64,000 nucleotides of DNA from the NCBI GenBank assembly GCA_963814275.1, contig CAWFCE010000002.1:1195263-1259262 (forward strand), written 5' to 3'. This DNA is from Candidatus Parcubacteria bacterium. Its GTDB lineage: Bacteria; Patescibacteriota; Patescibacteriia; Patescibacteriales; UBA12075. Below are positions 24,920 to 40,398 of the stretch, in pieces. The notes below the pieces were generated by a model. The model was not told the origin of the DNA. It searched no databases and saw only the letters and a program-made list of their open reading frames with translations. Both the position numbers and the translations under genes were made by a program. Each line of letters begins with the position of its first letter. Positions within the stretch are counted from its first letter, which is position 1.

Positions 24920-25780
24920 TTATAATAAATCCCCGATTTCGTCAAATTTATTTACTGCAACTTTAGTATAAATTTGAGTGGTTTCCAGGCGAGCATGGCC
25001 CAGCAAAGACTGAATATATCTTAAGTTTACACCATTTTCTAAGAGGTGGGTAGCAAAGCTGTGGCGCAATGAATGAGCAGAAACCCGTTTTTTGATCCCG
25101 GCCCGATTTGCGGCCTCGGTGACAATTTTCTGGATGGTCCGAACCGTCAATTTCCCGGCCGAACGGAAGCTTTCGAACAAGAATTCGGCCGGATCATAGC
25201 CGCGGATGTATTGCCCGATGTTTTCCAACACTGTCCCGGACACGATCGTCACCCGGTCCTTGTTGCCCTTGCCGGCCTGGATCCGGATTATTTTTCGGTC
25301 AAAGTCGATATCATAAACCCGCAAATTCACAAGTTCGCTCACCCGCATGCCGGTGGTATAAAGCACCTGGATGATGAGTTTATGTTTTATATTTCCTGCT
25401 ACCTCTATCATCCCAATGATTTCTTTTTTCGCCAGCACAACCGGTATCCTGGAGCCCATTTTGGGCCGCTTGATCCGGATTTCCCCGGCAAAAAAATTCC
25501 TCTTTAAAATTTGCGTGTAATAGAATTTAATGGCGTTGATCGCCAGGTTCAAGGTCGCCGGCGCCCGGCCGCTCACCAGAAGCCAATCCAGATAATCTTT
25601 TATATCCTGCGCGTTTAAATCATCGCTGAATTTGTTTGCAAATCTAAGCAATTCCTTGGTATAATAAACATAAGCCTTTACCGTTTTTTGGCTATAATTC
25701 CGTATTCTCAATTCCTGCTCCAAGTTATAAAACAAATCCCTTTTTAAAGTAGTAGAACGATTTAAATCTGATGGTAGCAT
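24920..25780 (-). CDS. tyrosine recombinase, integron-integrase-like N-terminus but Xer-sized (array 1 recombinase)
   Basis: 286 aa. SAM-like core-binding domain (IRNYSQKTVKAYVYY..., RIPVVLAKKEI); catalytic set TGMRVSE, GKGNKDR, HSLRHSFATH, LLGH, QIYTKV. It is divergent from and 78 bp away from the first GTTRRRY site. Confidence 0.85.
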   Translation of the reverse strand: MLPSDLNRSTTLKRDLFYNLEQELRIRNYSQKTVKAYVYYTKELLRFANKFSDDLNAQDIKDYLDWLLVSGRAPATLNLAINAIKFYYTQILKRNFFAGEIRIKRPKMGSRIPVVLAKKEIIGMIEVAGNIKHKLIIQVLYTTGMRVSELVNLRVYDIDFDRKIIRIQAGKGNKDRVTIVSGTVLENIGQYIRGYDPAEFLFESFRSAGKLTVRTIQKIVTEAANRAGIKKRVSAHSLRHSFATHLLENGVNLRYIQSLLGHARLETTQIYTKVAVNKFDEIGDLL

Positions 25781-25850
25781 ACCTTAATTAGCTAACATAT
25801 TTATATAATAATTTTAACTAATTTTTAACAAAAAATCAACAAGTTCAGAT

Positions 25851-25864
25851 ATAACCAGTTAGAT
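25851..25864 (+). other. attI-like site of array 1 (ATAACCAGTTAGAT)
   Basis: First GTTRRRY box (GTTAGAT, 25858-25864) after the recombinase gene. The ATAACCAGTT prefix is shared with array 2 (58890-58899). It is complementary to the R'' of cassette 1. Confidence 0.5.
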
Positions 25865-25902
25865 GAAATAATTAAATTATTTTCTGCTACGCAGAAAAAT
25901 TA

Positions 25903-27126
25903 TTGGGGCAAATTTATTTTTTTTATGAATATGAAGAAAAAATTCAAAAACCAACTCCTGAAAACAATCAAGAGTCACAAGCTGATATTTTACCTGAAAC
26001 ATACACCAAAGCCCGCACTCAAGAGATTAATCAGCAAATTAATTCATATCAGGGACCAAAAAACTCTGTAGATTTGGTATCCAAAACCAAAGAGATACAA
26101 GAAAACTACAAGCAATACATGGAAGAATCAGATGCTGAAGGAAGCCAAGAAACATTACAGCTTTTTCAAAAAAAAATGCAGGCAGAGATTGATTTCTATA
26201 AAAAAGAGTTTGATAAATTTAATGATCTGCAAAGGCTAGAAACCGTCTCTAATATATTAAAACCAGAAGATTTTCAGCTCTATGAAAAAATTCTAGGCAA
26301 CAAGGAAGGAAACACAGATGATTTATTTGATTCCCGCGGTAAAGTAATTCACGCCACAAATTCAACTGCACTAGATATAATATCTGATGTTAATACAATT
26401 TCTGGAGGAACAAGGCAGCTTGGACCTTCTTTCTCTGACGGAGATCACGACATCGCAATCACTTTTAATCTTGTGTGGGAAAAATTAAAAACGCCAGGAG
26501 GCATAGATAAAACCCACAAAAAAATTGACCTTGATGAATATCCACAATTCCCCAGTAAATATAATGAATTTGTTGATTGGGCAGTGCAAAGATTAAAAAA
26601 TGAATATGGCGAGGGAGAAAAGTTTGAAATGGAAAAAAACAAACTTCTTGCAAAAGCTGAAAAACATAACGAAGATAAATCAGTCCTCCACGATACTGAA
26701 GAACAGTACACTCAAGAATTAAAAGATATGGCATATGGCACGCTTAAACCGAAGTGGATAAAAGACGGGCTTAGCGAAGAAGAAGCTGAAAATAAAGTAA
26801 AAGAATATATTGAAAATCAAAACCATTTTAAAAACAGGCTAAAAAACCGACCTCAAAATGAAGTAGCCTTCCCTGTTACACTTGCATTTATTAAAAATGA
26901 GCTACCTGAACTTGTGCCTGAAGGTGGTGAAAGAGAATTTGAACTAAGAACAGAAGAAGAAATTAAGCTTGATAATGCCTCTACCATATTTGTTCCTGAA
27001 AAATATCTAAATAGCAGACTTGTTAGAAAAATAAATCAGGTTTATCCTAATATAGACATAAGAACAGAGGAGGAGTTGGAATTTGTAAGAATGAATAAAT
27101 TATTAAATAAAATAAATTTGCCCTAA
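25903..27126 (+). CDS. hypothetical Lys/Glu-rich protein (cassette 1)
   Basis: 407-aa ORF. Start uncertain: the TTG at 25903 lies inside the cassette inverted repeat and the first in-frame ATG is at 26119. Confidence 0.5.
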   Translation: MGQIYFFYEYEEKIQKPTPENNQESQADILPETYTKARTQEINQQINSYQGPKNSVDLVSKTKEIQENYKQYMEESDAEGSQETLQLFQKKMQAEIDFYKKEFDKFNDLQRLETVSNILKPEDFQLYEKILGNKEGNTDDLFDSRGKVIHATNSTALDIISDVNTISGGTRQLGPSFSDGDHDIAITFNLVWEKLKTPGGIDKTHKKIDLDEYPQFPSKYNEFVDWAVQRLKNEYGEGEKFEMEKNKLLAKAEKHNEDKSVLHDTEEQYTQELKDMAYGTLKPKWIKDGLSEEEAENKVKEYIENQNHFKNRLKNRPQNEVAFPVTLAFIKNELPELVPEGGEREFELRTEEEIKLDNASTIFVPEKYLNSRLVRKINQVYPNIDIRTEEELEFVRMNKLLNKINLP

Positions 27127-27162
27127 TAATAACTCGCTTCGCTCGTTGAATTTAATTACATC

Positions 27163-27254
27163 ATCTAACAGCGTGTATACGGTTCGCGCTTGGCTATCGC
27201 CAAATGCTCACCCAAATTTGCTTCGCAAACTTCGTATACACACGAACGTTAGGC
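27163..27254 (+). repeat. attC-like site 1
   Basis: R'' ATCTAAC (27163-69) is the reverse complement of the upstream GTTAGAT. It is followed by stem GTGTATACG / CGTATACAC, GGTTCG, hairpin H1 TTGGC-TATC-GCCAA, CACCCAAATT, hairpin TTTGC-TTCG-CAAA and ACTTCG. R' is GTTAGGC (27248-54). Confidence 0.75.
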
Positions 27255-27318
27255 GCAACAATAAAAAGCCTCTTTAATTAATTTAATAATTTTGGCAATT
27301 TATTTGCCCAATAAAACT

Positions 27319-27702
27319 ATGATAAAACCAGACCAAAATTTAGGAAAATTTTTTTCCAAAGAAGACCAATCCATTGAAAAGGAAACTGATTTAAAACAAC
27401 TTCAAGATTTCGCCGTATTATACCATGAAAAAAACATGCCTGAAGATCAGGAGAAAAAATTTATTTCATTGGCGCAAAAATACATAGACGAGAATCATGA
27501 TGGAACATACTATAATGAAGGCAATACAGATTATATTTATGTGCAACTTCCAAACGGACTATACTTAGAAGCTGATGCACATCTCAGAAGTAACACCTTT
27601 TATTTTTCCGGAGTACTATCAAAAGAAGATGCAGAAAAAAGAATAGACATGTTAGCAAAACAACGGGAAGAAGATATAAAAGCAGCTTTAGATAAAGAAT
27701 AA
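27319..27702 (+). CDS. hypothetical protein (cassette 2)
   Basis: ATG at 27319. The track start at 27292 reads through the cassette inverted repeat. 127 aa. Confidence 0.5.
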   Translation: MIKPDQNLGKFFSKEDQSIEKETDLKQLQDFAVLYHEKNMPEDQEKKFISLAQKYIDENHDGTYYNEGNTDYIYVQLPNGLYLEADAHLRSNTFYFSGVLSKEDAEKRIDMLAKQREEDIKAALDKE

Positions 27703-27842
27703 ACAAATTGCCAAAATTAATTTAAATAGCGGAGGAGGCTTTTTATTACTCGCTCCACTCCGTTCCGCGCCGCGCTGCGCTCTCACCCTCAAATTTTATG
27801 ATTATTAACTTTAATAAGGTATAAAATTTGAGTCTTCGGGGC

Positions 27843-27941
27843 GTATAACAACGCGATATACGGTTCGGCCCTCGGCCCGGGCCTCACCCAAATTGCAATC
27901 CCCTTCGGGTCTTGCAACTTCGTATATCGGTGATGTTGTGT
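27843..27941 (+). repeat. attC-like site 2
   Basis: Degenerate R'' GTATAAC; CGATATACGG / CGTATATCGG stems; GGTTCG; H1 GGCCC-TCG-GCCCGGGCC; CACCCAAATT; H2 GCAATCCCC-TTCG-GGTCTTGC; ACTTCG. R' is GTTGTGT (27935-41). Near-identical to site 14 except for H2. Preceded by an extra hairpin module at 27749-27842. Confidence 0.7.
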
Positions 27942-28006
27942 GAAATAATTAAATTATTTTTGCTCCGCAAAAATTGTTAGGGCAAATTTATTTAATCTTT
28001 AATCTT

Positions 28007-28456
28007 ATGAAACTCTATCATGGTTCACCAAATAGTTTTGATACAATTCGTAAAAGTCAGGCGCAAGCAGGTGATGATATTAAAGTGCCAGATGATGAAT
28101 TATTAAACGCGATTTATTTAACCCCAAATTATGAATTTGCTTTGGCCATCGCTTCGATGCCGGAAGGTGCTGCCAACATCGACAATGAAACCAAAACAAT
28201 CAAGTTTGAAAATCCTGAAGCATTCGACCCAGAAAAAGAAGTTTATATTTATGAAGTTGATAGTGAATTAATCCCGAAAGAAAATTTAAAAGAAGTTGAC
28301 GAGCTTCAAATTGCGATTTTAAACACCGATGAAATAAAGCCAACAATAAAACATGTTTGCAAAGCTGGTGATGTTGAGAAATATTATGAAATAAAAAAAG
28401 AAATTTTAGAGGCTAAAAACGAAACTAAAATATCACCTGAGTTCAAGATTAAATAA
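28007..28456 (+). CDS. hypothetical protein (cassette 3)
   Basis: ATG at 28007 (MKLYHGSPNSF). The track start at 27974 lies in the inverted repeat GGGCAAATTTATTT. Confidence 0.5.
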   Translation: MKLYHGSPNSFDTIRKSQAQAGDDIKVPDDELLNAIYLTPNYEFALAIASMPEGAANIDNETKTIKFENPEAFDPEKEVYIYEVDSELIPKENLKEVDELQIAILNTDEIKPTIKHVCKAGDVEKYYEIKKEILEAKNETKISPEFKIK

Positions 28457-28500
28457 ATTTGCCCTAACAACTCGCTATCGCTCGTTAATTTAATTACATC

Positions 28501-28627
28501 ACACAACACCGCGATAAACGGCTCGGTCTTTATTCAAAGACCTCGCGCAAATTTCTGTTTTCTCTTTTGTGATTAATTTAATAATGTAGAGAAGACAGAA
28601 ACTTCGCTTCATCGGGAAACATTATGT
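28501..28627 (+). repeat. attC-like site 3
   Basis: R'' ACACAAC is the reverse complement of the upstream GTTGTGT. CCGCGATAAACGG / CGCTTCATCGGG stems with conserved bulges; GCGCAAATT; long H2 with an ATTAATTTAATAAT loop; ACTTCG. R' is ATTATGT. Confidence 0.72.
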
Positions 28628-28686
28628 GAAATATGTTTTTACTCTTGGGCTAACGCCCCAACTTTTATATAATAAATTTAATTTTT

Positions 28687-29136
28687 ATGAATAACCTAAA
28701 ATATACGAAACCACTAAACATTTTTTTGCTTTTAGTAGCTATTGTCTTATTAGCTGGTTGCTCAAATAAATATTTTGAAAAAAATTTGGAGTGCGAGAAA
28801 CAAAAAGACATGCTTCAATACAACAGCGATAATTACAGCAAGGATACCAACACAATTATCAGTAAAATTCAAAAAGTATTTTACAGTCCAAAAGCAAAAA
28901 AATGTTTGTATGTTAGTGTCTCTGCAATCGATTTTAATTCGCCTAATAATATGACTGCTCTAACACAGAAAGACTATTCAGACGGAGCAAGATGGAAGCT
29001 CCGGACAATTTCAGGCGAATTAGTTGAAGATTTGCTAATTAACACTGAAGATGAAAAAATGGCTGTTTTTGGAGCAGAGCCACAACATACAGATTCATAT
29101 GAAGAATTTGAAAACCTTGTTAAAAAATGGGAATAA
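28687..29136 (+). CDS. putative lipoprotein (cassette 4)
   Basis: 149 aa. Signal peptide with lipobox LLAGC. Confidence 0.55.
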   Translation: MNNLKYTKPLNIFLLLVAIVLLAGCSNKYFEKNLECEKQKDMLQYNSDNYSKDTNTIISKIQKVFYSPKAKKCLYVSVSAIDFNSPNNMTALTQKDYSDGARWKLRTISGELVEDLLINTEDEKMAVFGAEPQHTDSYEEFENLVKKWE

Positions 29137-29200
29137 AAAATTAAATTTATTATATAAAAGCAATTCCGCATAAGCGGAATTAAGAGCAAAAACATACATC

Positions 29201-29657
29201 ACATAACAATGAATATGCGGTTCACAAATTAAAAATTATTCCTTATAATTATCAAAATATATGAAAAAAATATTAGTATTCGCGGTCGTTGTCTTGTTAA
29301 TAATTTTAGTGTTTAGCTGGTGGAATAAATCCCCAGAAGCTACATGGCAGGGTTCCTATTACAAACACGGACAACAAGAAAACGAAGTGTATGGACCAAT
29401 TTTTACTAATTTTGATGGCTGTAAAGCGTGGGCATTAGGAAAAATAGTTTATAACGACGACACAGCTAACTGTAGTAAAAATTGTCATGACGCTTTGGGA
29501 GACGGCACCCCTGTGTGTGAGGAAGTTGTTAGAAATTGGGCACCGCTTCCGGGCAGTTACACTTTTGATAATTATAAGGAATAATTTTTAATTTGTTCAC
29601 CCAAATTTTTGTTCCGCTTCGCTACACAAAAACTTCGCATATTCATAAACGTTAGGC
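29201..29657 (+). repeat. attC-like site 4, split by a nested cassette (29225-29595)
   Basis: R'' ACATAAC matches the upstream TTATGT. L'' AATGAATATGCG (29208-19) pairs with L' CGCATATTCAT (29636-46). The insert is flanked by GTTCAC (29220-25 and 29595-600) and sits immediately 5' of CCAAATT. R' is GTTAGGC (29651-57). Confidence 0.72.
29261..29584 (+). CDS. small secreted/TM-anchored Cys-containing protein (nested cassette)
   Basis: 107 aa with an N-terminal hydrophobic helix. The ORF is bracketed by a perfect 32-bp inverted repeat (29225-29256 / 29564-29595), whose right arm encodes the last 6 codons plus the stop. Confidence 0.55.
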   Translation: MKKILVFAVVVLLIILVFSWWNKSPEATWQGSYYKHGQQENEVYGPIFTNFDGCKAWALGKIVYNDDTANCSKNCHDALGDGTPVCEEVVRNWAPLPGSYTFDNYKE

Positions 29658-29689
29658 GAAATAAATTTTTCGCTACTAATTTTAAACAT

Positions 29690-30283
29690 ATGAAAAAATT
29701 CTTTTTGGGCTTCGCAAGCTCGTTATTAATCACAATTCCCCTGATCGCTTTTTCTGCTGATTCACTGTCTACAAAACTAAAAGGAAAAATTTTGTTAGCA
29801 GTAGAAGATAAGGGTAAAACTTATTATGTCAATGAAGATGGAAACAGATACAGAATTACTGTTTCTACTGCACAAAAAATATTTGAAAAACTTGCATTGG
29901 GCATTACAAATGAAAATTTAAGTCAAATTCCAGAAAGTAACGTAGGTATCGACCCAGAAGAAAACAGCACCCAGGAAAATTGTGCTGCGCAAGAATCAGA
30001 ATTAAATGATTGGAAGAATTTGAATACAAAAAATGAAAATACCCTCAGTTCTTGCCTTAACACCCTCACTAGCTTGAAGGATTCTTATGCAGACCTAATT
30101 AACAAATACGAAGATTGCATAGGTGAGTGCAATTATGGCCCTACAGTTGATGCACTCATCGCCCAAAATAACGAGCTTGCTAAACAAAATGATGAACTTT
30201 TAGCTATATCTATTTACTGGGAAAATAGTGCTAACACATGGAAGGCTTACGCATATGGTTGCACTGGCTATACTAGTCAATAA
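29690..30283 (+). CDS. secreted protein with KGKILLxVExxGxxYYV motif (cassette 6)
   Basis: ATG at 29690 (MKKFFLGFASSLLITIPLIAFS signal peptide). The track start at 29609 reads through attC-like site 4. Confidence 0.55.
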   Translation: MKKFFLGFASSLLITIPLIAFSADSLSTKLKGKILLAVEDKGKTYYVNEDGNRYRITVSTAQKIFEKLALGITNENLSQIPESNVGIDPEENSTQENCAAQESELNDWKNLNTKNENTLSSCLNTLTSLKDSYADLINKYEDCIGECNYGPTVDALIAQNNELAKQNDELLAISIYWENSANTWKAYAYGCTGYTSQ

Positions 30284-30336
30284 AATTAGTAGCGAAAAAT
30301 TTACTCAAGGGTTCGCTCCTTGAATCCGCTCACCTC

Positions 30337-31028
30337 GCCTAACGCGGCGTATCTGGCTCCGCTGGCCGTAAAATAATTAATTTTTTTATGACGATATTAA
30401 AGCCCAGAAATAAACCTGGCTCAAATAGTTTGCAAAACAGATTAGGTGGAGCAGTTTATAATTTTCTGGACAAAGCAAAAAATAATGATAAATTTTTGTT
30501 AGACTACGAAAGGATTAAAGGTAAATGTACCTCTGGCAATTGGCAAATTAATGATTATTCTCCAATACTTTTGCCATTGGTTAAATACTATGAAAATAGC
30601 TTGTGGTTTATTTGTGATAAATTAGGCATATTTAACCAGATTAATGACGGCAAAAAACCCCATAGCTTAAGGGCATTTTTCGACACAAAAGAAACAGAAA
30701 TAAATATTTGGCTTTCTTCAAAAATTAATGATAATCTTAAATATAAAAAATTGTCCAGAAAATTATTTTCAACAATCGACGATTATGTTCAGAGAAATGA
30801 AGTTGTTCATTGCAACGAAATCATATCCTTTCCCGATTTGAGCAATTACGATAGTTTGCTTACTAAATTAAAAGAATTAGTTGAACTTTTATTTAATCAC
30901 AATTTATTACAAAAAAATTAATTATTTTACTAGCTCCGCCCAAATTTCGTTTCCGCTTTTTGTTGGCGCATCCGCGCAATTATAACAAAAAGCTACAACG
31001 AAACTTCAGATACGCCGAAATGTTATCG
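30337..31028 (+). repeat. attC-like site 6, split by a nested cassette (30363-30932)
   Basis: R'' GCCTAAC is the reverse complement of the upstream GTTAGGC. L'' GGCGTATCTG (30346-55) pairs with L' CAGATACGCC (31007-16). The direct repeat GCTCCGC occurs at 30356-62 and 30933-39, the latter abutting CCAAATTT. R' is GTTATCG (31022-28). Confidence 0.72.
30388..30921 (+). CDS. hypothetical protein (nested cassette)
   Basis: 177-aa ORF flanked by the 20-bp inverted repeat GTAAAATAATTAATTTTTTT (30368-87 / 30911-30). Confidence 0.5.
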   Translation: MTILKPRNKPGSNSLQNRLGGAVYNFLDKAKNNDKFLLDYERIKGKCTSGNWQINDYSPILLPLVKYYENSLWFICDKLGIFNQINDGKKPHSLRAFFDTKETEINIWLSSKINDNLKYKKLSRKLFSTIDDYVQRNEVVHCNEIISFPDLSNYDSLLTKLKELVELLFNHNLLQKN

Positions 31029-31120
31029 GAAATAAATTTTTTATCTTGGTGGTAATTTCAAGGTTTGCGCGTTTTGCCAAGACGAAAATTTGATTTTTTA
31101 TTTTTTAAAGAGGGGTAATT

Positions 31121-31609
31121 ATGAAATTAACCAAAGAAACTACCTCGGAAAAACTTCTTGATTTTGGCAAACAGATTTTCGAGATTTTACAAAGACTAGA
31201 TACCTCACCAATCGTTTACGGTAGTTTGGCATATTTTTATCATACGAAAGATACTAGTTTCCCGATTAGAGACATTGATTTGCTTTTGCCAGAATCAAAT
31301 TTTTCAAAAATATCTGAAATGCTCGACAAAGAAAAAAATGTCACATACAATGTGATGCCATATCATAGTATAGAGGTATTCAGAGACGGTCTCGAAATCG
31401 ACATCGATTCTATCGAACATTTTTTAGATCCGAGATCTAGAGAATTTCATAAATCAACGATAAACGACCTCGATTTGAATATTTTAAATAAAGAGTCCTT
31501 GGCAAGCATTTACAAAGAAGCCTTGGATAACATGCCGCAAGAGAAAAAACTCGATGAAAAAAGAAATAAGTATCAAAAGAAGTTAGACAATCTCCAAAAA
31601 TTACTTTAA
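31121..31609 (+). CDS. hypothetical protein, possible minimal nucleotidyltransferase fold (cassette 8)
   Basis: 162 aa with SD AAGAGGGG. YGSLAYFYH...IRDIDLLLPE resembles the GS...DxD motif of Pol-beta-type nucleotidyltransferases; this is a weak call. Confidence 0.4.
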   Translation: MKLTKETTSEKLLDFGKQIFEILQRLDTSPIVYGSLAYFYHTKDTSFPIRDIDLLLPESNFSKISEMLDKEKNVTYNVMPYHSIEVFRDGLEIDIDSIEHFLDPRSREFHKSTINDLDLNILNKESLASIYKEALDNMPQEKKLDEKRNKYQKKLDNLQKLL

Positions 31610-31734
31610 TAAGGAGTTTTTATTTTTGGCCATTCACCCCTACCCCTCTGGCCAAAAATAAAAACAAAAAATCAAATTTTCTTTTAACGTAGAAAAGCTA
31701 TCGGCCAGTAGCATGGAGATAAAAAATTTACATC

Positions 31735-31921
31735 CGATAACACGGCACATGCGGTTCAGAAATTTCTCGTTTTTTAGACTTTTCAATTAAGGTATGAGAA
31801 ATTTCCTCTCCCAAATTGCGCTGACTATATGGAAAGTTTAGTGGTATAATCAAGTTAAGCGATAATCAATAATTTTATCAATAAATAACGGCGCAACTTC
31901 GCATGTGCCGATACGTTAAAT
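31735..31921 (+). repeat. attC-like site 8
   Basis: R'' CGATAAC is the reverse complement of the upstream GTTATCG. GGCACATGCGG / CGCATGTGCC stems; GGTTCA; H1 GAAATTTCTC...GAGAAATTTC; CTCTCCCAAATT; long H2; AACTTCG. R' is GTTAAAT (31915-21). Confidence 0.72.
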
Positions 31922-32016
31922 GAAATTGGCTAATTGTTTAGTGTACACCATAGATGACACTATAGTGTACACTAATGTGGTAAATCAAAGTTAATCGCGA
32001 GCCAACTTCACTTAAC
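31916..32016 (+). other. conserved ORF-less cassette, copy 1 of 3
   Basis: GAAATTGGCT...TTAATCGCGAGCCAACTTC-ACTTAAC with internal palindrome TAGTGTACAC-N16-GTGTACACTA. Homologous copies are at 59441-59542 and 61297-61396. Confidence 0.6.
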
Positions 32017-32534
32017 AGGTGATATGCGGTTACAATTAAGGAAATATAGAATATAATTTTTACTAAAAAAATCCCCACGAACTGAATCGCAGGGACACGT
32101 TGGTTTTAGTCCATCTTTGGAAATTACACAATAAGGATTTTTGCTCTGCCTTCGACATTGTGAAAACCGATAAACACAGTATTGCGTCCGGTTTCCTTTA
32201 AACGTTTCAATGCTAACACGGCAGCTTCGGTACCAACGGTTTTTTCAAAATCTGATATGAGCTTTATGGCATCATCAATCGGATAATCATCAACTTCCAC
32301 TCCAACCATTGGTCCGTGCTTTTCTGGGTCATATTCTGATATCGGCGCTGTCTTTAATTCCATATTCCCTCCTTTTTATGAATTGTTGCTAGAAACTTAG
32401 CACGTGAATGCCAAAAACGCAAGTAAAAATTATTTTCTATATTTCTTTAATCTCCACCCAAATTCCTGCCCCTCTTTTTAGGATAAATTAATAATGAGTC
32501 GGGGCAGAAACTTCGCATATCAAAAATGTTAGGC
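32010..32534 (+). repeat. attC-like site 9, split by a nested reverse-oriented cassette (32034-32451)
   Basis: R'' ACTTAAC. L'' GGTGATATGCG (32018-28) pairs with L' CGCATATCA (32513-21). ACCCAAATT and the H2 stem CCTGCCCC...GGGGCAG follow. R' is GTTAGGC (32528-34). This is a paralog of the array 2 site at 59536-60215. Confidence 0.7.
32124..32363 (-). CDS. hypothetical 79-aa protein (reverse-oriented nested cassette)
   Basis: Strong SD (AGGAGGG) 7 nt upstream of the ATG on the minus strand. The cassette is bounded by a roughly 29-bp inverted repeat (32034-63 / 32423-51). Confidence 0.55.
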   Translation of the reverse strand: MELKTAPISEYDPEKHGPMVGVEVDDYPIDDAIKLISDFEKTVGTEAAVLALKRLKETGRNTVFIGFHNVEGRAKILIV

Positions 32535-32559
32535 GAAATTTATTTTCAATTTAAAATTT

Positions 32560-33396
32560 ATGAGTTCGGATACTATAACCAATTACTACGATTACACCCT
32601 GCCATTTTATAGATTTTTTTATCACGGCAAGAGCAATGCCGTTCATTATGGCTTTTGGAACAATGGAGTTAAAAATCACCAGGAAGCTTTATTGAACGTA
32701 AATAAATTTTTGGCTGACACGGTTAAGATAAAATCAGATGATAGTGTTTTAGACGCGGGTTGCGGAATTGGAGGTAGCGCGATTTGGCTGGCACAGAATT
32801 ACAATGTTCGAGTTGATGGCATAACCATAAGTGAAAAACAGTTAGAGGAAGCCAAAAATTTATCTACCAAATATAATGTTGACCATATCGTAAATTTTTA
32901 TCAAAGAAATTTTTTAAATACCAAATTTAACGATAGTTCCTATAACATAGTTTTGGCGATTGAAAGCGTGTGCCATGCCGAGAACAAAAAGGACTTTATC
33001 AAAGAAGCGTACCGGGTACTTAAAAACGGCGGACGATTGATTGTTGATGATGGATTTCTTTTGCGAAGTCCGAAAAATAAACACGAGCAAAAAGATTTAA
33101 ATGCATTTTTAGAGGGCATGGCACTCTCCAATCTTGCTTTTGAAACAGACTTTAAAAAATCTCTTGAAGATGTTGGATTTAAAAATATAAAAATTTACGA
33201 CAAGGTCAACGAAACGATTCCTTCTTCAAAAAAAATCTATAAAATGTCAATTTTTAGTTATCCTTTATCTATAATTCTCGAAAAACTAAAACTTACACCA
33301 CCATTATTAACCAAAAATAATTTAGCGGGAATAACACAATACAGGATAATTAAAAATGGGATAATGGGACACCGAGTATTTTACGCTGAAAAATAA
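32560..33396 (+). CDS. class I SAM-dependent methyltransferase (cassette 11)
   Basis: 278 aa. Motif I VLDAGCGIGGSAIWLA; post-I and motif II/III spacing (LKNGGRLIVDD). Confidence 0.8.
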   Translation: MSSDTITNYYDYTLPFYRFFYHGKSNAVHYGFWNNGVKNHQEALLNVNKFLADTVKIKSDDSVLDAGCGIGGSAIWLAQNYNVRVDGITISEKQLEEAKNLSTKYNVDHIVNFYQRNFLNTKFNDSSYNIVLAIESVCHAENKKDFIKEAYRVLKNGGRLIVDDGFLLRSPKNKHEQKDLNAFLEGMALSNLAFETDFKKSLEDVGFKNIKIYDKVNETIPSSKKIYKMSIFSYPLSIILEKLKLTPPLLTKNNLAGITQYRIIKNGIMGHRVFYAEK

Positions 33397-33419
33397 ATTT
33401 TAAATTGAAAATAAACATC

Positions 33420-33573
33420 GCCTAACACCGCGATAAGCGGCTCCAGAAAAGTTCCTTAATTAAATATAATAATGAGTAAACTTTTCTTCCGACCCAAATT
33501 TCTATTTTTCTTTTCTTATTAATTTTAATATTGAAAAAAAATAGAAACTTCGCTTCATCGGGAAACGTTGTGT
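33420..33573 (+). repeat. attC-like site 11
   Basis: R'' GCCTAAC is the reverse complement of the upstream GTTAGGC. CCGCGATAAGCGG / CGCTTCATCGGG stems; GGCTCC; H1 33445-87; CCCAAATT 33493-500; H2 33501-45; AACTTCG 33546-52. R' is GTTGTGT (33567-73). Confidence 0.75.
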
Positions 33574-33639
33574 GAAATAATGTCCTTAAACAAAATATTT
33601 TAGGTGGTGCTAATTCAAAAGAAAAAGGAGGGAGGTATT

Positions 33640-33852
33640 ATGGTAATCATCAATAAACTTGGCAGATTATTAAAAGACCATTCAGAAACTTTTATTCTTT
33701 TTTTAGCGGGTATAATATTAACCCTATACGGGATTTTGAAAGCATTGCCTTTTATTGATTGGGCGCAGAAAGGTCAATTTTCGAGTGAGTTTACTATTTT
33801 ACTTGGAATACTTCTGCTATTCTTTGGACTTCGTTCATTATTAAACAAATAA
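33640..33852 (+). CDS. small two-TM membrane protein (cassette 12)
   Basis: ATG at 33640 preceded by AAGGAGGGAGG. 70 aa. Confidence 0.55.
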   Translation: MVIINKLGRLLKDHSETFILFLAGIILTLYGILKALPFIDWAQKGQFSSEFTILLGILLLFFGLRSLLNK

Positions 33853-33955
33853 ATTGATTATTCTCGCGGGGAACACTTTCCCCGCACCACCTAAAATATT
33901 TTGTTAGCTTCTATTCAGAAGCTGTTTGCTCAATCGCAAACAAGGACATTACATC

Positions 33956-34073
33956 ACACAACAACGCGACAAGCGATTCGGTCTTTATTCAAAGACCTCA
34001 CTCAAATTTTTGAAATGATTATTAACTTTAATAATGAATTTCAAAAACTTCGCTTCGTCGGTATACGTTATAT
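33956..34073 (+). repeat. attC-like site 12
   Basis: R'' ACACAAC is the reverse complement of the upstream GTTGTGT. H1 GGTCTTTATTCAAAGACC; CACTCAAATT; H2 TTTGAAATG...ATTTCAAA; ACTTCG. R' is GTTATAT (34067-73). Confidence 0.72.
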
Positions 34074-34090
34074 GAAATTAAAAATTCCCT

Positions 34091-34603
34091 ATGAGCATTA
34101 AACAAGATTGGAAAAGTCCCAAAGTTGATATAAAAGATAGTCCGATTGGAGGAAAAGGCATTTTTGCTAATTCCAATATTAAACGAGGTGAAAAAATCAT
34201 CGTCTGGGGAGGAAATTATACTGATGCTGTTGGTGCGCAAAAAGCAAAAGAAAAAGGTATGCTAGTATTTCAATGGGACGATGACCTTTATAGCTACGAA
34301 GATAGAGGGAAAGACGATGGGTACTACATAAACCATTCCTGTAACCCTAATCTATGGATGACAGATGCATACACTTTAACAGCTATGAGAGATATTAATG
34401 CTGGTGAAGAAATTACAATAGATTATGCGTTGTTCGAGGAAGATGATTATATTTCAAAATGGAAATGCAACTGCGGTTCATCGTTATGCCGCGGCCGGGT
34501 TACAGGAGAGGATTGGAAAAGCATAGTGCTACAAAAACGCTATAAAGGACATTTTTCACCTCTCTTAAATAAACGGATCCAGAAATTACAAGATAATAAA
34601 TAA
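34091..34603 (+). CDS. SET domain protein (cassette 13)
   Basis: 170 aa. YINHSCNPN and EEITIDY SET motifs plus the post-SET CNCGSSLCRG. Confidence 0.8.
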   Translation: MSIKQDWKSPKVDIKDSPIGGKGIFANSNIKRGEKIIVWGGNYTDAVGAQKAKEKGMLVFQWDDDLYSYEDRGKDDGYYINHSCNPNLWMTDAYTLTAMRDINAGEEITIDYALFEEDDYISKWKCNCGSSLCRGRVTGEDWKSIVLQKRYKGHFSPLLNKRIQKLQDNK

Positions 34604-34627
34604 TTCACGGCGGGAATTTTTAACATC

Positions 34628-34772
34628 ATATAACACCGCGATAAGCGGTTCCAGAAAATTTCCTTTATTAATGATAATAATGAATAAAATTTTCTTCCAC
34701 CCAAATTTTGCAAATGAATATTAATTTTAATAAGGTATTTGCAAAACTTCGCTTCATCGGGAAACGTTAGGC
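34628..34772 (+). repeat. attC-like site 13
   Basis: R'' ATATAAC is the reverse complement of the upstream GTTATAT. Same family as sites 3, 11 and 17. R' is GTTAGGC (34766-72). Confidence 0.75.
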
Positions 34773-34800
34773 GAAATAATTTATCAATAATTAAATTTCT

Positions 34801-35150
34801 ATGGGAATAGACAACAAGCCTTTTACGGCAGAGCAACTCCAGGAACAGATTAATTTTTTTGGAATTGATTGCACTGTAAAAAAACACCTGGAGAAAAATA
34901 TATATTTTTTAGTTGTGACTCTATGGAAGACGCGGAATCAATAGTAGTAAGTTTTTGGGGAAAAAGAGATCAATCAGTTGTTGACGGCCTTAACCGAGGC
35001 ATGCTAAAACCTAGTCATGAAATTACTACAGGTGCCAGAACGGAAATCACTGAAATCGGAGGCAAAGCAACATTAATTATTAGTGAAAACGGTGCTCCAC
35101 TTTCGGAAAAAACAATTTCAGCATTAGAAGATGGAGGATTTACAATTTAA
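34801..35150 (+). pseudogene. hypothetical cassette gene with a frame break at an A7 run (cassette 14)
   Basis: The ATG at 34801 opens MGIDNKPFTAEQLQEQINFFGIDCTVKK. After the A7 run (about 34877-34883) the reading continues in another frame as TPGEKYIFFSCDSMEDAES... to 35150; one extra A would fuse the two frames. Alternatively an intact ORF could start at ATG 34923. Confidence 0.4.
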
Positions 35151-35232
35151 TTATTGATAAATTACTCAAGGGGGCGCTGCGCTTCAGGTCTGCCTTTTAC
35201 AATTAATAATATTGAGAGCAGACCTGACCCTC

Positions 35233-35331
35233 GCCTAACAACGCGATATGCGGTTCGGCCCTCGGCTCGGGCCTCACCCAAATTTTCTTTCACTTCGTTC
35301 AAGAAAACTTCGTATATCGGTGATGTTGTAC
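35233..35331 (+). repeat. attC-like site 14
   Basis: R'' GCCTAAC is the reverse complement of the upstream GTTAGGC. Near-identical to site 2 apart from H2. R' is GTTGTAC (35325-31). Preceded by a hairpin module at 35165-35232. Confidence 0.75.
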
Positions 35332-35359
35332 GAAATAAAAATTTAATTATTTTGCTACC

Positions 35360-36079
35360 ATGAAATTCAAGGAAGCATACAAACACATAAACCCCACCGA
35401 ATACATAAATATTTTTTCCAACCCTCAATGGTATTTGGAAATACAAGCTGAACTAAAGGATTTTTTTTATGATTATGACGGCAATAAGGATAACAAATCG
35501 CAAGAATGGCTTGAAAAAAGGAAAGAATTTGTAAAAATGGTTTGTGAACTTTTAGAAGCTGGCAAAGTTGCTCTTGGCGACTCTGGTATAAACTGGGATA
35601 AAGACCGTTTACCCATAGATACAATTGTTATACATCATACGAGCACGCCATCAGACACCCCCGTTATAGCCATTGATGCACTGGGATTGATTCGTTTGTA
35701 TGCACCGAATTACAGCAAAAAAAATGAGGAGCAATTTGGCCAGCCAATATGGTCAAACCATTTTTGCAAAAATCAACAAACATTCGTTGCTTATCATTAC
35801 ATAATCAGACAGGATGGTTCTTTTGAACACATATTACAAGATGACCAAATAGGTTGGCATTGTGGCAATTGGGATTATAACTGCAGAAGTATTGCGATTT
35901 GTTTTCTTGGTGATTTAAAAGAAAAAAAACCGACTGAAAAAGCACTTCAAACGGCGAATGAAATCATAAAAAAATATCCAAATTGTAATATATTCGGTCA
36001 TAGAGAAATTAAACCCACAACAACTTGCCCAGGTAATCTGTTTCTAGGGAAAGAGGGTTGGAAAACGACATATTTCTAA
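35360..36079 (+). CDS. N-acetylmuramoyl-L-alanine amidase (amidase_2/PGRP fold) (cassette 15)
   Basis: 239 aa. IVIHHTSTP...AYHYIIRQDG...GWHCGNWDYNCRSIAICFLG...GHREI...TCPG. Confidence 0.75.
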   Translation: MKFKEAYKHINPTEYINIFSNPQWYLEIQAELKDFFYDYDGNKDNKSQEWLEKRKEFVKMVCELLEAGKVALGDSGINWDKDRLPIDTIVIHHTSTPSDTPVIAIDALGLIRLYAPNYSKKNEEQFGQPIWSNHFCKNQQTFVAYHYIIRQDGSFEHILQDDQIGWHCGNWDYNCRSIAICFLGDLKEKKPTEKALQTANEIIKKYPNCNIFGHREIKPTTTCPGNLFLGKEGWKTTYF

Positions 36080-36107
36080 GAACGCAAAATAATTAAATTT
36101 TTACATC

Positions 36108-36186
36108 GTACAACACTGAATATCTGGTTCCGTTATCGCTCCACCCAAATTGCTGACGCAACTTCAGATATTCAGAAACGTTATCG
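36108..36186 (+). repeat. attC-like site 15 (shortest, 79 bp)
   Basis: R'' GTACAAC is the reverse complement of the upstream GTTGTAC. CTGAATATCTGG / CAGATATTCAG stems; GGTTCC; CCACCCAAATT; hairpin GCTGACGCAA; CTTCAG. R' is GTTATCG (36180-86). Confidence 0.75.
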
Positions 36187-36253
36187 GAAATATTGCTCAT
36201 TAAAATATTTTTTTGTAAGAGGGCTTGAAATTAACTATCAAAGGAGGATTGTA

Positions 36254-36544
36254 ATGAAGAAAAAATCTTTACACAACGTTGGAGATTTGGTCGTATTTAA
36301 TGAAACCAAAGAATTTGGGAACAAAAATGACCGTATATTTCACATCCACGCCATTCGATATGGCAAATGCACTGGAATTCCTAAAAAACAATATTGGTTC
36401 GCTGGTTTCCTGCTGGAAATTGGAAAACACGAGAGTGAGGGTTTACCTCAAATTCCAGTTTTTGCAACAACCTTAACCAACGCTTCCGAAAATCAATTGA
36501 GTTCATTAGAGCATCTACAATGCCGTTTCAACCCATGGAAATAA
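36254..36544 (+). CDS. hypothetical protein (cassette 16)
   Basis: 96 aa. SD AAAGGAGGA upstream of the ATG. Confidence 0.5.
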   Translation: MKKKSLHNVGDLVVFNETKEFGNKNDRIFHIHAIRYGKCTGIPKKQYWFAGFLLEIGKHESEGLPQIPVFATTLTNASENQLSSLEHLQCRFNPWK

Positions 36545-36651
36545 TCTACGCCCTTTGTCTTCGCGGGAATAAACAATATTCCCGCCCTCTTTTCAAAAAA
36601 ATATTTTTGCTGGCTTATCAGCCAACGGCTATCACTAATGAGCAATATATC

Positions 36652-36759
36652 CGATAACAGCACGCTATCCGGTTCGCGCTTGCCCTGTCGGGCAAATGCT
36701 CACCCAAATCCCGACTCCGATTCACTACATCGGGACTTCGGATATCGGCATATGTTATG
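36652..36759 (+). repeat. attC-like site 16
   Basis: R'' CGATAAC is the reverse complement of the upstream GTTATCG. Family shared with sites 18, 23 and 24 (GCACG.TATCCGG ... CCGATATC). H1 stem TTGCCC/GGGCAA. R' is GTTATGT (36753-59). Confidence 0.75.
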
Positions 36760-36815
36760 TGAAATTTAAGTTGTGGCCTTAATTAAATTTAATATATTCA
36801 ATAACTTCTCTCTTA

Positions 36816-37208
36816 ATGATAAAACAAGTTTCATTGTTAATATTATTTGATAAAGATAAGCGCATTTTATTGCAACATCGTTCCGAAGATCAAGAAGGAT
36901 TACCTGGCTATTGGGCTTTTTTTGGTGGTCATATTGAAAACGGCGAAACACCAGAGCAGGCATTACTGAGAGAGTCTGAGGAGGAATTAGAGTATATGCC
37001 GGAAAACCCCCGCCTAGTTATGACTCAGGATTTTATGCACGACAATATACGACATAGAAAATACGTTTATTTAGAGGAATATAATAACAGCAAACTTGTT
37101 CAACACGAGGGTCAAGCTATGGGATGGTACCATTTAGGCGAAATACAAAAATTAAAAATGGTAGACCACGACCGAGAAGTTATTGATTATATTAAAAACA
37201 AATATTGA
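36816..37208 (+). CDS. NUDIX hydrolase (cassette 17; duplicated at 60271-60663)
   Basis: 130 aa. Nudix box [23 protein letters not shown]. Protein sequence identical to the array 2 copy. Confidence 0.85.
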
Positions 37209-37227
37209 GTGCCACAACTTAAACATC

Positions 37228-37433
37228 ACATAACACCGCGATAAGCGGCTCCAGAAAATTTTCTTTATTAATATTAAACAGGAATAAAATTTTCTACCGG
37301 CCCAAATTTCATTTCAGTTTTCTGATGAACGTTCAATAAACGTTCATCGCTCCACGATTGTCTGATATTGATAATAATCGATTCTAAAACGGAAAACTGA
37401 AGTGAAACTTCGCTTCATCGGGAAATGTTAAAT
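37228..37433 (+). repeat. attC-like site 17 (206 bp)
   Basis: R'' ACATAAC is the reverse complement of the upstream GTTATGT. Long branched H2. R' is GTTAAAT (37427-33). Duplicated with the NUDIX cassette in array 2. Confidence 0.72.
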
Positions 37434-37497
37434 GAAATATCTAAAACAAATTCCCTATCGGGAATTTTATCTGCAAGTTTATAATTAATTTTCTTAT

Positions 37498-38160
37498 ATG
37501 AAAAACAAATTTTTTTTACTATTAATCTTAGTCATTATCTTAGCTGGGTGCAATAAACAAAACACAAGTATTAATTTAACCCCAGATAATCAAACTAAAA
37601 ATATTTCAAACTCAACAAACGATACTAATACATCAATACAGGAAAACGTAGAAGCAAAAAACAATATTCCCGAAGAAAAACCAACAGAAATTAAGCAAGA
37701 AGACGATATAAAAATACAAAATATTAATAATAAAAAAAGTTATCAAAATTTAACAACTGGGTTTAGCTTAGAATTTCCAGAGGCATTAATATTCAGGAAT
37801 AACGCTTTTTACACCGAGGTAAACTGGGACGGTATTGTAAATAAAAAAACTGACCATATGTACGTTCCTGAATTTACTGTCCGTTTTGCATCTGATGTGT
37901 CATTAGATGAATTTATTTATAATTCGATTAACCCAAATTATAAAAATCATTTTAATTCAAACAAAAACAAAATCAAAGAACAAAAAACAATAGGAAATAA
38001 TAAATTCTTTATGATAAACAGTAAAAATTTTGATAGCAATGGTTGTAGTTACTATATAGAAAATAATAAAAATATAATGAGATTAAGTACCGCATATAAC
38101 TGCGGTGAAAACGAATTAATAGAAAACGTTTTGATATCTATTAAAACAACAGAAAATTAA
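37498..38160 (+). CDS. putative lipoprotein (cassette 18)
   Basis: 220 aa. Signal peptide with lipobox ILAGC; Asn/Lys-rich. Confidence 0.55.
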   Translation: MKNKFFLLLILVIILAGCNKQNTSINLTPDNQTKNISNSTNDTNTSIQENVEAKNNIPEEKPTEIKQEDDIKIQNINNKKSYQNLTTGFSLEFPEALIFRNNAFYTEVNWDGIVNKKTDHMYVPEFTVRFASDVSLDEFIYNSINPNYKNHFNSNKNKIKEQKTIGNNKFFMINSKNFDSNGCSYYIENNKNIMRLSTAYNCGENELIENVLISIKTTEN

Positions 38161-38212
38161 TTATAAACTTGCAGATTATTTTTGCTATCGCAAAAATGGT
38201 TTTAGATACAGC

Positions 38213-38318
38213 ACATAACAGCACGATATCCGGTTCGCGCTTTCCTTCGGAAAATGCTCACGCAAATCCCGACTCCGTTTCACTGCGTCGGGACTTCGGA
38301 TATCGGCATACGTTAGGC
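38213..38318 (+). repeat. attC-like site 18
   Basis: R'' ACATAAC has 2 mismatches to the upstream GTTAAAT. Paralog of site 16 with a compensatory H1 stem TTTCC/GGAAA. R' is GTTAGGC (38312-18). Confidence 0.68.
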
Positions 38319-38347
38319 GAAATTTAAAATTTATCTTTATCTCAATT

Positions 38348-38638
38348 ATGTCATTAAACAAACTAAAACATTTTAAAAAACCTTGGGTAATTGGTCTTAT
38401 TGTTGGTATAATCCTAGCCATCGGAAATATATTACTTGCCGGAATTCCAGGGATTATCTTATTTGAAAACACTTTAGATCCGGTACAATCAATTTCTGGT
38501 TGTGCAGGAGAAGACTGTTGGGGTCCATCTGCACTTTATGGTAGTGTAATTTTCTTAATTGTCGGGTTTTTATTTGGTTACCTTGTTGGAATATTTATAA
38601 ATAGATCCTTGAGCAAAGTAGATAAAGATAAATTTTAA
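38348..38638 (+). CDS. small membrane protein (cassette 19)
   Basis: 96 aa, 3 TM helices. The 3' end (GATAAAGATAAATTTTAA) is part of the cassette inverted repeat. Confidence 0.5.
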   Translation: MSLNKLKHFKKPWVIGLIVGIILAIGNILLAGIPGIILFENTLDPVQSISGCAGEDCWGPSALYGSVIFLIVGFLFGYLVGIFINRSLSKVDKDKF

Positions 38639-38712
38639 ACTCAAGGGGGCGCTGCGCTTTCGTCCCGCCCTTTGAATAATATAATTTAATATTGTAGGCG
38701 TGACGAACCCTC

Positions 38713-38811
38713 GCCTAACACCGAGTATACGGAAAAAGGCTCAACTCGCCTTTTTCCCAAATTCGCCTTCGTTTCACTCCGGCGAACTTCGTATACTCGG
38801 AAACGTTATCG
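38713..38811 (+). repeat. attC-like site 19
   Basis: R'' GCCTAAC is the reverse complement of the upstream GTTAGGC. CCGAGTATACGG / CGTATACTCGG stems; H1 AAAAAGGC...GCCTTTTT; CCCAAATT. R' is GTTATCG (38805-11). Preceded by a hairpin module at 38640-38712. Confidence 0.75.
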
Positions 38812-38845
38812 GAAATTACACTTTTTAAAAAATAATTTTATTATT

Positions 38846-39511: not shown

Positions 39512-39589
39512 TAATAAAATTATTTCTTTATTTGGGCTATTCGCCCAAATGTCCTTCCCTATCGGTCAGGACTAAAAAGTGTAACTGTC

Positions 39590-40325: not shown

Positions 40326-40398
40326 GAAATAAATAAATGCTTTTCGGCTAACGCCGAAAAATTATTCGGGCAAATATTTATTATTCAATACTAAAAGA

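Follow-up and report, generated by a model that had tools for sequence, protein, structure and literature searches.

A stretch of 64,000 nucleotides from Candidatus Parcubacteria (the window, by which we mean the whole stretch analysed) contains two integron-like arrays of gene cassettes, each adjoining a gene for a Xer-like tyrosine recombinase. Most open reading frames (ORFs) of these arrays are bracketed by long inverted repeats, and we propose that these repeats are the self-complementary termini of mobile integron-like cassettes, whose arms clamp the R box of the recombination site and align the crossover points. The structural part of this reading is well supported and the functional part is plausible; we regard the proposal as a whole as evenly balanced between right and wrong. 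Both arrays appear as low-GC blocks (33%) inside a genome of 45-50% GC and begin about 80-115 nt from a divergent recombinase gene. They consist of short units separated by imperfect palindromes of 80-210 nt, and 28 units were tabulated in the window, 22 in array 1 and six in array 2.

24920-25780, - strand: tyrosine recombinase of array 1, 286 aa; Xer-like, without the IntI-specific insertion
25858-42975, + strand: array 1, an attI-like site and 22 cassettes (A1-A22); 33% GC against 45-50% in the flanks
57970-58782, - strand: tyrosine recombinase of array 2, 270 aa; of the same type and 38% identical to the array 1 enzyme
58897-64000, + strand: array 2, an attI-like site and at least six cassettes; continues past the end of the window

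The complementarity between the two ends of a cassette was expressed as an arm score, in which the left arm is compared with the reverse complement of the right arm after removing the 12 nt of the R box and of the motifs GAAAT/ACATC next to it. Over the 28 cassettes of the window the median was 39.5 for the two arms of the same cassette (matched) and 17 for arms of different cassettes (mismatched, 99th percentile 30). Nineteen of the 28 scored above all 54 mismatched pairings, two further ones (A14 and B3, duplicates) were matched only by each other, and the z-scores against shuffles were 6-12 for most cassettes. AT-rich composition, which the earlier note on this DNA had named as a possible trivial cause of the similarity, fails as the sole explanation of these values. 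The cassette flagged in that note, A2 (27248-27849), reached a score of 48 (z = 10.9), and none of the 54 mismatched pairs was as high. Array 1 alone gave a list of 25 long inverted repeats, labelled I plus a number below, nearly all of which flank one ORF and begin at R' and R''; examples are I2 (39 nt, 95% complementary), I3 (35 nt, 94%) and I4 (32 nt, 94%). The five pairs of arms quoted in the earlier note are all present, no more than a few bases from the quoted positions, at 25849-25930 / 27099-27178 in A1 (I6, I14), at 27260-27293 / 27714-27747 and on to 27311 / 27701 in A2 (I13), at 28622-28686 / 29136-29206 in A4 (I11, I20), at 34067-34100 / 34601-34634 (I9, quoted as 34074-34090 / 34612-34627) and at 36753-36777 / 37211-37235 (I18, quoted as 36760-36776 / 37211-37227). 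Stop and last codons do lie inside the right arm at 29563-29601, 38621-38638 and 60106-60133, as had been claimed. Arms were said to occur in essentially every cassette, which holds for most; A7, A18, A21, A22, B2 and B5 have instead only an ORF-less hairpin of 44-103 nt. The coordinates below come from the repeat search and direct reading, the limits derived from cofolding over-extending into the ORFs.

27248-27311, + strand: A2, 5' end, with R' GTTAGGC (27248-27254) and left arm, which ends 8 nt before the ATG at 27319 (I13)
27319-27702, + strand: A2, ORF of 127 aa (counted from its ATG), placed as the loop of the long hairpin; no Pfam match above threshold
27701-27747, + strand: A2, right arm, overlapping the stop codon (27700-27702) and complementary to 27255-27311 (I13)
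27748-27842, + strand: A2, GC-rich module (ACTCGCTCC...CTCAAATTTTAT...ATAAAATTTGAG...) between right arm and R''
27838-27946, + strand: A2, attC-like site: R'' (to 27849), L'', two hairpins around CACCCAAATT, L', R' GTTGTGT (27935), GAAAT
25858-25920, + strand: A1, attI-like R' (GTTAGAT), GAAAT and left arm; scaffold family F1 (see below); private mini-hairpin at 25879-25897 (I6, I14)
27104-27169, + strand: A1, right arm (AAATAAATTTGCCC..CTCGCTTCGCTCG..AATTTAATT), ACATC and R'' ATCTAAC (arm score)
27935-28002, + strand: A3, R', GAAAT and left arm; family F1 (I7)
28442-28507, + strand: A3, right arm with last codons and stop, ACATC and R'' (I7; circular-junction fold)
28621-28686, + strand: A4, R' (ATTATGT), GAAAT and left arm with a mini-hairpin (I11, I20)
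29136-29207, + strand: A4, right arm with its own mini-hairpin, ACATC and R'' (I11, I20)
32527-32561, + strand: A8, R' GTTAGGC, GAAAT and left arm, ending at the ATG (I3, 35 nt, 94%)
33393-33427, + strand: A8, right arm, beginning at the stop codon, ACATC and R'' GCCTAAC (I3)
35324-35355, + strand: A12, R', GAAAT and left arm (I4, 32 nt, 94%)
36084-36115, + strand: A12, right arm, ACATC and R'' (I4)
36754-37427, + strand: A14, whole cassette, with NUDIX ORF 36816-37208 (Pfam) and arms 36753-36777 / 37211-37235 (I18)

The sites that separate the cassettes resemble attC sites. All 28 in the window carry nnnnAAC ... GTTnnnn together with L''/L' stems that covary between sites, in the order ACATC, R'' (nnnnAAC), L'', hairpin 1, CACCCAAATT, hairpin 2, L', R' (GTTnnnn) and GAAAT. 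The predicted folds show R and L stems parted by an internal loop. Bulges in the L box and an unpaired spacer are predicted as well, and together with the fixed mispair in GAAAT/ACATC they are at most candidates for the extra-helical bases and central spacer that confer bottom-strand selectivity in integrons. The unpaired CACCCAAATT between the two internal hairpins is common to the attC-like sites (for example 33415-33578), and the loop of the second hairpin is also conserved across them (ATTAAyTTTAATAAkG); we know of no conserved central motifs of this kind in canonical attC sites. Each array opens with an attI-like site, GTTAGATGAAAT at 25858, 78 nt from the start of the recombinase gene, and GTTGTACGAAAT at 58897, 115 nt from the second recombinase gene. 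The distal end of array 1 (41600-43000) looks degenerate: its R boxes (GTTAGGCGACAT, CCTAAC) are weak, it contains a truncated fragment of a methyltransferase-like ORF, and the last site holds an ORF on the reverse strand.

The R box itself indicates what the arms pair with. The four variable bases of R'' perfectly match the 5' end of their own cassette, i.e., the R' of the preceding site, in 19 of the 28 cassettes; with the R' at the other end of the same site, as it stands in the array, they are complementary in just one of 28. For this reason we take the arms as the outward continuation of a pairing between the cassette's own ends, and not of the hairpin present in the array. The repeats had been described as nearly always beginning GAAAT after R' and ending ACATC before R''. 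This has to be qualified: GAAAT was found in 23 of the 28 cassettes and the exact form of ACATC in 13 of 28, its variants being ACTTC, ACTAC, or xxxTC behind an inserted GC-rich module. The mispair, which reads A.C if the top strand is folded and G.T if the bottom strand is, survives in ACTTC and ACTAC. As GAAAT also follows the attI-like R', both motifs belong to the recombination site rather than to the cassette-specific repeat, and the G.T on the bottom strand is consistent with folding of that strand as in integrons, where the bottom strand is the recombinogenic one (PMC5371416). The GC-rich modules, of 30-110 nt, lie between right arm and R'' in one class of cassettes, and their family groups together when the arms are clustered. 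Examples (ACTCAAGGGGGCGCTGCGCT...hairpin...CCCTC) are found at 27748-27842, 30304-30336, 35164-35232, 38639-38712 and 59276-59347; their hosts are cassettes with GCCTAAC- or GTACAAC-type R boxes, and ACATC is split there into AC...TC.

Two cases of shared cassettes define the mobile unit. The NUDIX cassette at 36754-37427 is duplicated in array 2 at 60209-60882 with 98% identity, which ends at the GTT of R' on both sides, and the cassette at 34766-35327 is 97% identical, with the same GTT boundaries, to one in assembly L006, whose recombinase is 74% identical. Both place the crossover between the G and the TT of R', and from these sequences the units appear to behave as mobile cassettes. The same boundaries bear on the idea that the repeats are the terminal inverted repeats of a second, nested mobile element, similar to a transposon or a MITE (miniature inverted-repeat transposable element), or substrates for inversion of the ORF. 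The repeats do flank the ORFs tightly, some families of arms recur around different ORFs, and a few ORFs are on the opposite strand (A20, L003_11901 and the ORFs at 32124-32363 and 42272-42754 in internal loops). However, the repeats begin exactly at the R box, the duplicated cassettes are bounded at G|TT and not at the inner ends of the arms, and the arrays showed neither target-site duplications nor a transposase. A common end to which a transposase could bind is lacking, as most arms are different from one cassette to the next. The transposon version was rejected on the cassette boundaries and the missing common end sequence, and we hold an element of this kind in general to be highly improbable.

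The same design was found well beyond the window. External arrays were collected from a Falkowbacteria metagenome-assembled genome (L003), metagenome contigs (L007-L011) and contigs with homologues of the recombinase (L006, L087-L092, L097-L100); they contain small ORFs divergent from the recombinase and sites of the same layout, and an attI-like site adjoining a divergent recombinase gene was found in L003, L006, L087-L091 and L097-L100. The search of genome contigs with the recombinase gave five loci, three of them relevant and two truncated on the array side. The scan of metagenome contigs, by recombinase alignment and generic catalytic-motif patterns, returned mostly distant Xer-like genes, and arrays were recognisable in 6 of 80 loci. 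Sites were located with nhmmer half-site profiles of 32-38 nt motifs, of limited sensitivity, supplemented by regular expressions, which biases the GAAAT/ACATC counts. An assembly artefact was rejected, the design being the same in independent assemblies. Over 68 cassettes from 16 loci, including other Patescibacteria, the matched arms had a median score of 39.5 against 18 for the mismatched ones (Mann-Whitney p = 9e-41), and 59 of the 68 exceeded the 95th percentile of mismatched pairs. For the external cassettes alone the figure was 41 of 49, so that the repeats are not absent from related cassettes elsewhere, the outcome that the earlier note had set as decisive against itself. The first 8 nt past GAAAT/ACATC were complementary in at least 7 of 8 positions in 54 of the 68 cassettes, compared to 1.9% of mismatched pairs. 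Nine cassettes of class 1 integrons, analysed with an ORF-anchored version of the test, had complementarity at the level of the R box only (matched 24, mismatched 16, 95th percentile 33), while the window gave 49 against 20 in the same test.

What the arms would do to the site was explored by folding; all structures are thermodynamic predictions, with the bottom strand folded as DNA. In the simulated circular junction of A8, one uninterrupted stem takes in the arm, the R box and the L box (at -53.7 kcal/mol, z = -8.1), and in the junction as it stands in the array (-28.1 kcal/mol, z = -1.6) the R box is not formed. The circular junction of A3, whose left arm bears a side hairpin, has an energy of -62.5 kcal/mol (z = -10.6). 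Over 20 sites the median pairing probability of the R box (mean of its seven pairs) was 0.99 in the circle and 0.18 in the array, and the minimum free energy was -54 against -36 kcal/mol. With the R'/R'' pairing of a cassette's two ends prolonged by the arms, the R box of a circularised cassette would lie within a long stem, as had been proposed from the sequence and as these folds predict. Circularisation does not seem to be required, the same stem being the predicted minimum-energy fold of the single-stranded array. When the strand from one site through the cassette to the next site was folded, the cassette's own ends paired across an ORF of 400-1300 nt in 14 of 17 cases (for A12, across an ORF region of 790 nt in a fold of 1011 nt), and the R box of the array formed in 0-2 of the 17.

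These predictions suggest the following mechanism. Each cassette begins with the TT of one R' and ends with the G of the following R', and its start (TTnnnn, GAAAT, left arm) is complementary to the bases before its own attC-like site (right arm, ACATC, nnnnAA). Wherever the cassette becomes single-stranded, whether excised as a circle, on the template of the lagging strand or in DNA acquired by transformation, its two ends could zip into a stem of 20-90 bp that contains the R box and runs into the L-box hairpin, and the cassette would become a rod with the ORF as its terminal loop. GC skew is negative on the + strand and the host genes are almost all on the - strand (1-25000, 43000-58800); by both signs the bottom strands of the arrays are on the probable lagging-strand template. 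Since the R' present in the array, that of the next cassette, is mismatched, it would be the end-to-end stem that forms the R box. In a free cassette this stem would clamp the recombination site for insertion at the attI-like site; in the array it would hold the two crossover points of one cassette together by the L-box hairpin, favouring precise excision of a single cassette. The strand discontinuity would fall exactly at the G|TT cleavage point, with the 5' and 3' crossover points pre-aligned, and DNA-DNA pairing of the ends may replace the synapse-stabilising contacts made by the IntI-specific domain, absent from the Xer-like recombinase. What maintains the arms could be selection for pairing or, alternatively, a correction of the palindrome in which one arm continually serves as template for the other.

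The repeats had also been said to differ between cassettes and to be specific to each of them. This stands for most arms; however, their clustering gave at least two scaffold families that recur across genomes around unrelated ORFs. F1 (A1, A3, A19, L091_12644, L099_16778) has the arms ...GGGCAAATTTATTT / AAATAAATTTGCCC..., with a bulge of CTCGCTAWCGCTCG, and F2 (A6, B7, L003_14055, L008_11516, L089_13684 and the first cassette of L091) has AAATTTTTTATCT...GAAAATTTGATTTTT / AAAAATCAAATTTTC...AGATAAAAAATTT. The ORFs inside one family are unrelated (best BLASTP no better than E = 0.09), and the homologous methyltransferase ORFs of A8 and L089_13684 occupy different scaffolds. Compensatory changes, with both partners altered and the pair kept, affect 20 of the 58 pairs predicted for F1 and, for F2, 5 of 50. 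The innermost part of the arms is private even within the families. The motif CTCGCTAWCGCTCG (27133-27145, 28471-28484, 40962-40975; also in L003 and L091) recurs both as an unpaired bulge of the F1 right arm and in the loops of "empty" hairpin cassettes; GNC-TATC/TAAC-GNC mini-hairpins are common across arms and sites.

In the wider set, about a quarter of the cassettes with matched R boxes (19 of 87) lack an ORF between R' and R'' and have only a hairpin of 38-112 nt, which is still closed by a stem continuing the R box. Their ORFs are found instead within the attC-like site, as the loop of its internal hairpin 1, with an inverted repeat of 16-39 nt on either side. The claim that each ORF is bracketed between R' and R'' thus stands for most cassettes but leaves out seven ORFs of the window; a rule that covers both kinds is that each ORF forms a long hairpin's loop.

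29261-29584, 30388-30921, 32124-32363 (- strand), 39809-40234, 42272-42754 (- strand), 59588-60121 and about 61466-61623: the seven ORFs within sites
29219-29601, + strand: ORF 29261-29584 within the attC-like site of A4, with its inverted repeat 29219-29257 / 29563-29601 (I2)

The repeat around the ORF in A4 (39 nt, 95% complementary) extends internal hairpin 1 of the site, and its right arm contains the last seven codons and the stop. A conserved ORF-less module of about 100 nt (GTTAAATGAAATTGGC...GCCAACTTCACTTAAC) is present at 31915-32016, 59440-59542 and 61296-61396, and in L003, L006, L091, L097 and L099. Several of its copies hold sigma-70-like sequences (TTAGTG/TTAGCA-N17-TATAGT/TATAGA), putative promoters that could drive the ORF in the adjacent site.

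The recurrence of the same scaffolds around unrelated ORFs suggests that hairpin cassettes exist first and receive ORFs in their loops, and it is also among the points that weaken the main rival explanation, a non-adaptive origin by template switching. There the stem of the R box (7 bp plus GAAAT/ACATC) would seed a hairpin in single-stranded DNA, and intramolecular template switching (quasi-palindrome correction) would copy one arm from the other, the complementarity spreading inward until it is halted by purifying selection on the ORF, with no selected function. Such a process would account for arms that are near-perfect in Watson-Crick pairing and symmetric between the strands, that reach exactly to the first and last codons and often into them, and whose innermost part is private even in scaffold families. 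However, the scaffolds are conserved around their unrelated ORFs across genomes whose recombinases are only 45-65% identical, and templated correction should have erased both the private non-complementary mini-hairpins and bulges like CTCGCTAWCGCTCG. The GAAAT/ACATC mispair has never been "corrected" either, and the process still needs the same single-stranded hairpin. We judge this origin rather unlikely.

An RNA-level element has to be considered too, in which pairing of the flanks hides the ribosome-binding site and start codon, so that stored cassettes are silenced, or creates RNase III sites at which a polycistronic transcript of the array is cut into stable mRNAs of one gene each. Over 64 cassettes the predicted pairing comes within 10 nt of the start codon in 80%, often covering it, and of the stop codon in 83%, and in 69% the stop or last codons are themselves part of it. 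The 5' non-coding flank tends to be long where the 3' one is (rho = 0.61 between their lengths). The start region would by these predictions be sequestered in the mRNA of most cassettes. In F2 a sequence similar to a Shine-Dalgarno motif, AGAGGGG, precedes the ORF, and the 3' hairpin loop holds a conserved CCCCTCT complementary to it (CATTCACCCCT..CCCCTCT), as at 31085-31120 / 31640-31660, and perfect duplexes of 20-60 bp would be substrates for RNase III. The sense strand, however, has no excess of mismatches tolerated as G.U. The arm pairing is almost purely Watson-Crick (1620 matches and about 100 mismatches in some 1700 aligned columns), and G.T-type mismatches numbered 11 on the top and 21 on the bottom strand in the wider set, and 7 and 9 in another count. 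Cofold energies of the two strands differed by 2.9 kcal/mol with RNA parameters, the bottom strand folding slightly better (p = 0.047), and did not differ with DNA parameters. The counts are too few to call, so that these tests argue only weakly against a role confined to RNA. Against it stand also that the arms are continuous with the R box, an element of DNA recombination, that they close ORF-less hairpins and flank ORFs of the opposite strand, and that a scan of the whole window matched zero Rfam families. The attC covariance model of IntegronFinder does not form part of Rfam. The Watson-Crick pairing, the near-symmetric fold energies, the continuity with the R box, the closed ORF-less hairpins and the lack of an Rfam match together favour an origin and role at the DNA level, and there may be consequences for the mRNA too. 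As the explanation of the arms, the RNA-level element seems to us improbable.

Several points weigh against the arms as functional cassette termini. The same inverted repeat necessarily pairs in the mRNA as well, where it may have a role, and template switching at a quasi-palindrome could yield long and perfect arms even if nothing selects for them. Neither kinetics nor single-strand-binding protein enters into the minimum-energy folds, and a loop of 400-1300 nt would be expected to close slowly compared to a local hairpin. The asymmetry between strands is weak (p about 0.05 with RNA parameters, not significant with DNA parameters). The external cassettes were chosen for matching R boxes, partly through GAAAT/ACATC patterns, so that their motif frequencies are biased; the arm scores exclude those bases. 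Finally, the class 1 control was small (nine cassettes).

The cargo of the arrays is varied. Pfam identified three NUDIX hydrolases, a SAM (S-adenosylmethionine) methyltransferase, a SET-domain protein and an Amidase_2 peptidoglycan hydrolase among the cassettes, and most other ORFs of the arrays had no Pfam match. The literature that we searched, largely without subscription journals, contained no description of the extended cassette termini, the ORFs within sites or the shared scaffolds. If the arms act as cassette termini, their significance would reach beyond this genome. The attC site is a model for structure-specific recombination, and the R box is understood as the point where its stem starts; in these cassettes the stem continues for tens of bp and consists of the two cassette ends, and a functional site would exist only once one cassette closes on itself. 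This would explain how arrays made stable by mismatched R boxes coexist with free or looped-out cassettes that are highly recombinogenic, in an integron-like system with a Xer-like enzyme and in ultra-small genomes. The shared scaffolds and ORF-less hairpins also offer a testable handle on how gene cassettes are made. One tentative extension, which we consider more doubtful than not, is that Patescibacteria have a separate integron-like lineage with a Xer-type recombinase devoid of the IntI domain, in which rod-like, self-complementary cassettes of single-stranded DNA build their own R box and pre-assemble the junction for excision and insertion, DNA pairing taking the part that the IntI-specific domain plays as protein, and the hairpins and the F1 and F2 scaffolds are vehicles for new ORFs. 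If true, these scaffolds and the ORF-less hairpins would be a visible intermediate of cassette genesis.

The recombinases set the system apart from integrons as they are defined. Integron integrases are recognised by PF00589 together with an IntI-specific additional domain near patch III, a domain treated in the literature as defining IntI and as necessary for integron recombination (PMC4889954). PF00589 was found in the recombinase; the IntI-specific domain, in the definition of IntegronFinder, was not. The alignment to VchIntIA (2a3v) puts residues 182-214 of the enzyme opposite chain residues 171-245, a deficit of about 42 residues, that to IntI1 has about 45 residues of gaps in the same region, and the match to TIGR02249 is split and below its cutoff. 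The enzyme is instead most similar to XerA, XerC and XerD, with a match of 249 bits to NCBIfam NF040815 (XerA_Arch, cutoff 220) and P. abyssi XerA (4a8e) as best solved relative. Its close homologues annotated in Patescibacteria (Falkowbacteria, Parcubacteria) number in the thousands. Neither array's recombinase would be identified as IntI by standard integron detection.

With Xer/dif systems the arrays share this XerA/XerC/XerD-type recombinase. The pdif modules of Acinetobacter plasmids, in which genes lie between inversely oriented halves of recombinase sites, can also be likened to them. However, Xer sites are double-stranded sequences of 28 bp with two 11-bp arms, while here the pairing of L and R boxes, with covariation, requires a folded single strand: as duplex DNA, R'' and L'' show no dyad symmetry, neither is an inverted copy of the other, their pairing partners are 60-200 nt away on the same strand, and by inspection no dif-like dyad (28 bp, two inverted 11-bp arms, 6-8 bp spacer) was seen at the junctions. 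Nor do pdif modules form arrays next to a dedicated recombinase and attI. Ribosomal RNA operons have processing stems, cut by RNase III, with a similar long-range complementarity around a unit within a longer transcript, a likeness relevant only to the RNA-level alternative; the stems described here differ in being continuous with a DNA recombination box, strictly Watson-Crick and also present around ORF-less hairpins. Archaeal integrons (Ghaly et al., 2022; bioRxiv 10.1101/2022.02.06.479319) are alike in belonging to non-classical phyla, known from uncultured small-genome lineages in metagenomes; their IntIs are reported to keep the IntI-specific additional domain and their attC sites typical folding, whereas the enzyme here is without that domain, and no extended arms are described there.

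The closest likeness is to the integrons exemplified by class 1 and by the Vibrio cholerae repeats (VCR), whose cassettes and attC sites have been described in detail (PMC5371416, PMC4889954). Both consist of arrays of mostly promoterless single-ORF units next to a divergent tyrosine recombinase and an attI or attI-like site. In both each unit ends in an imperfect palindrome R''-L''...L'-R' with conserved AAC/GTT and covarying L''/L' stems, the crossover is at G|TT, so that a cassette's R'' is complementary to the 6 nt with which the same cassette starts, and cassettes are shared between arrays and genomes. The differences are that here the complementarity of the ends continues for 20-90 bp past the R box to the ORF, which it did in none of the nine class 1 cassettes, that the R box is extended by GAAAT/ACATC with its fixed mispair and is mismatched in the array, that the sites are of 80-210 nt with two internal hairpins around CACCCAAATT and may contain an ORF, and that the recombinase is without the IntI-specific domain. 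On this last account we do not file the system as an integron in the strict sense; it works like one, with folded attC-like sites, an attI-like site by the recombinase and G|TT boundaries.

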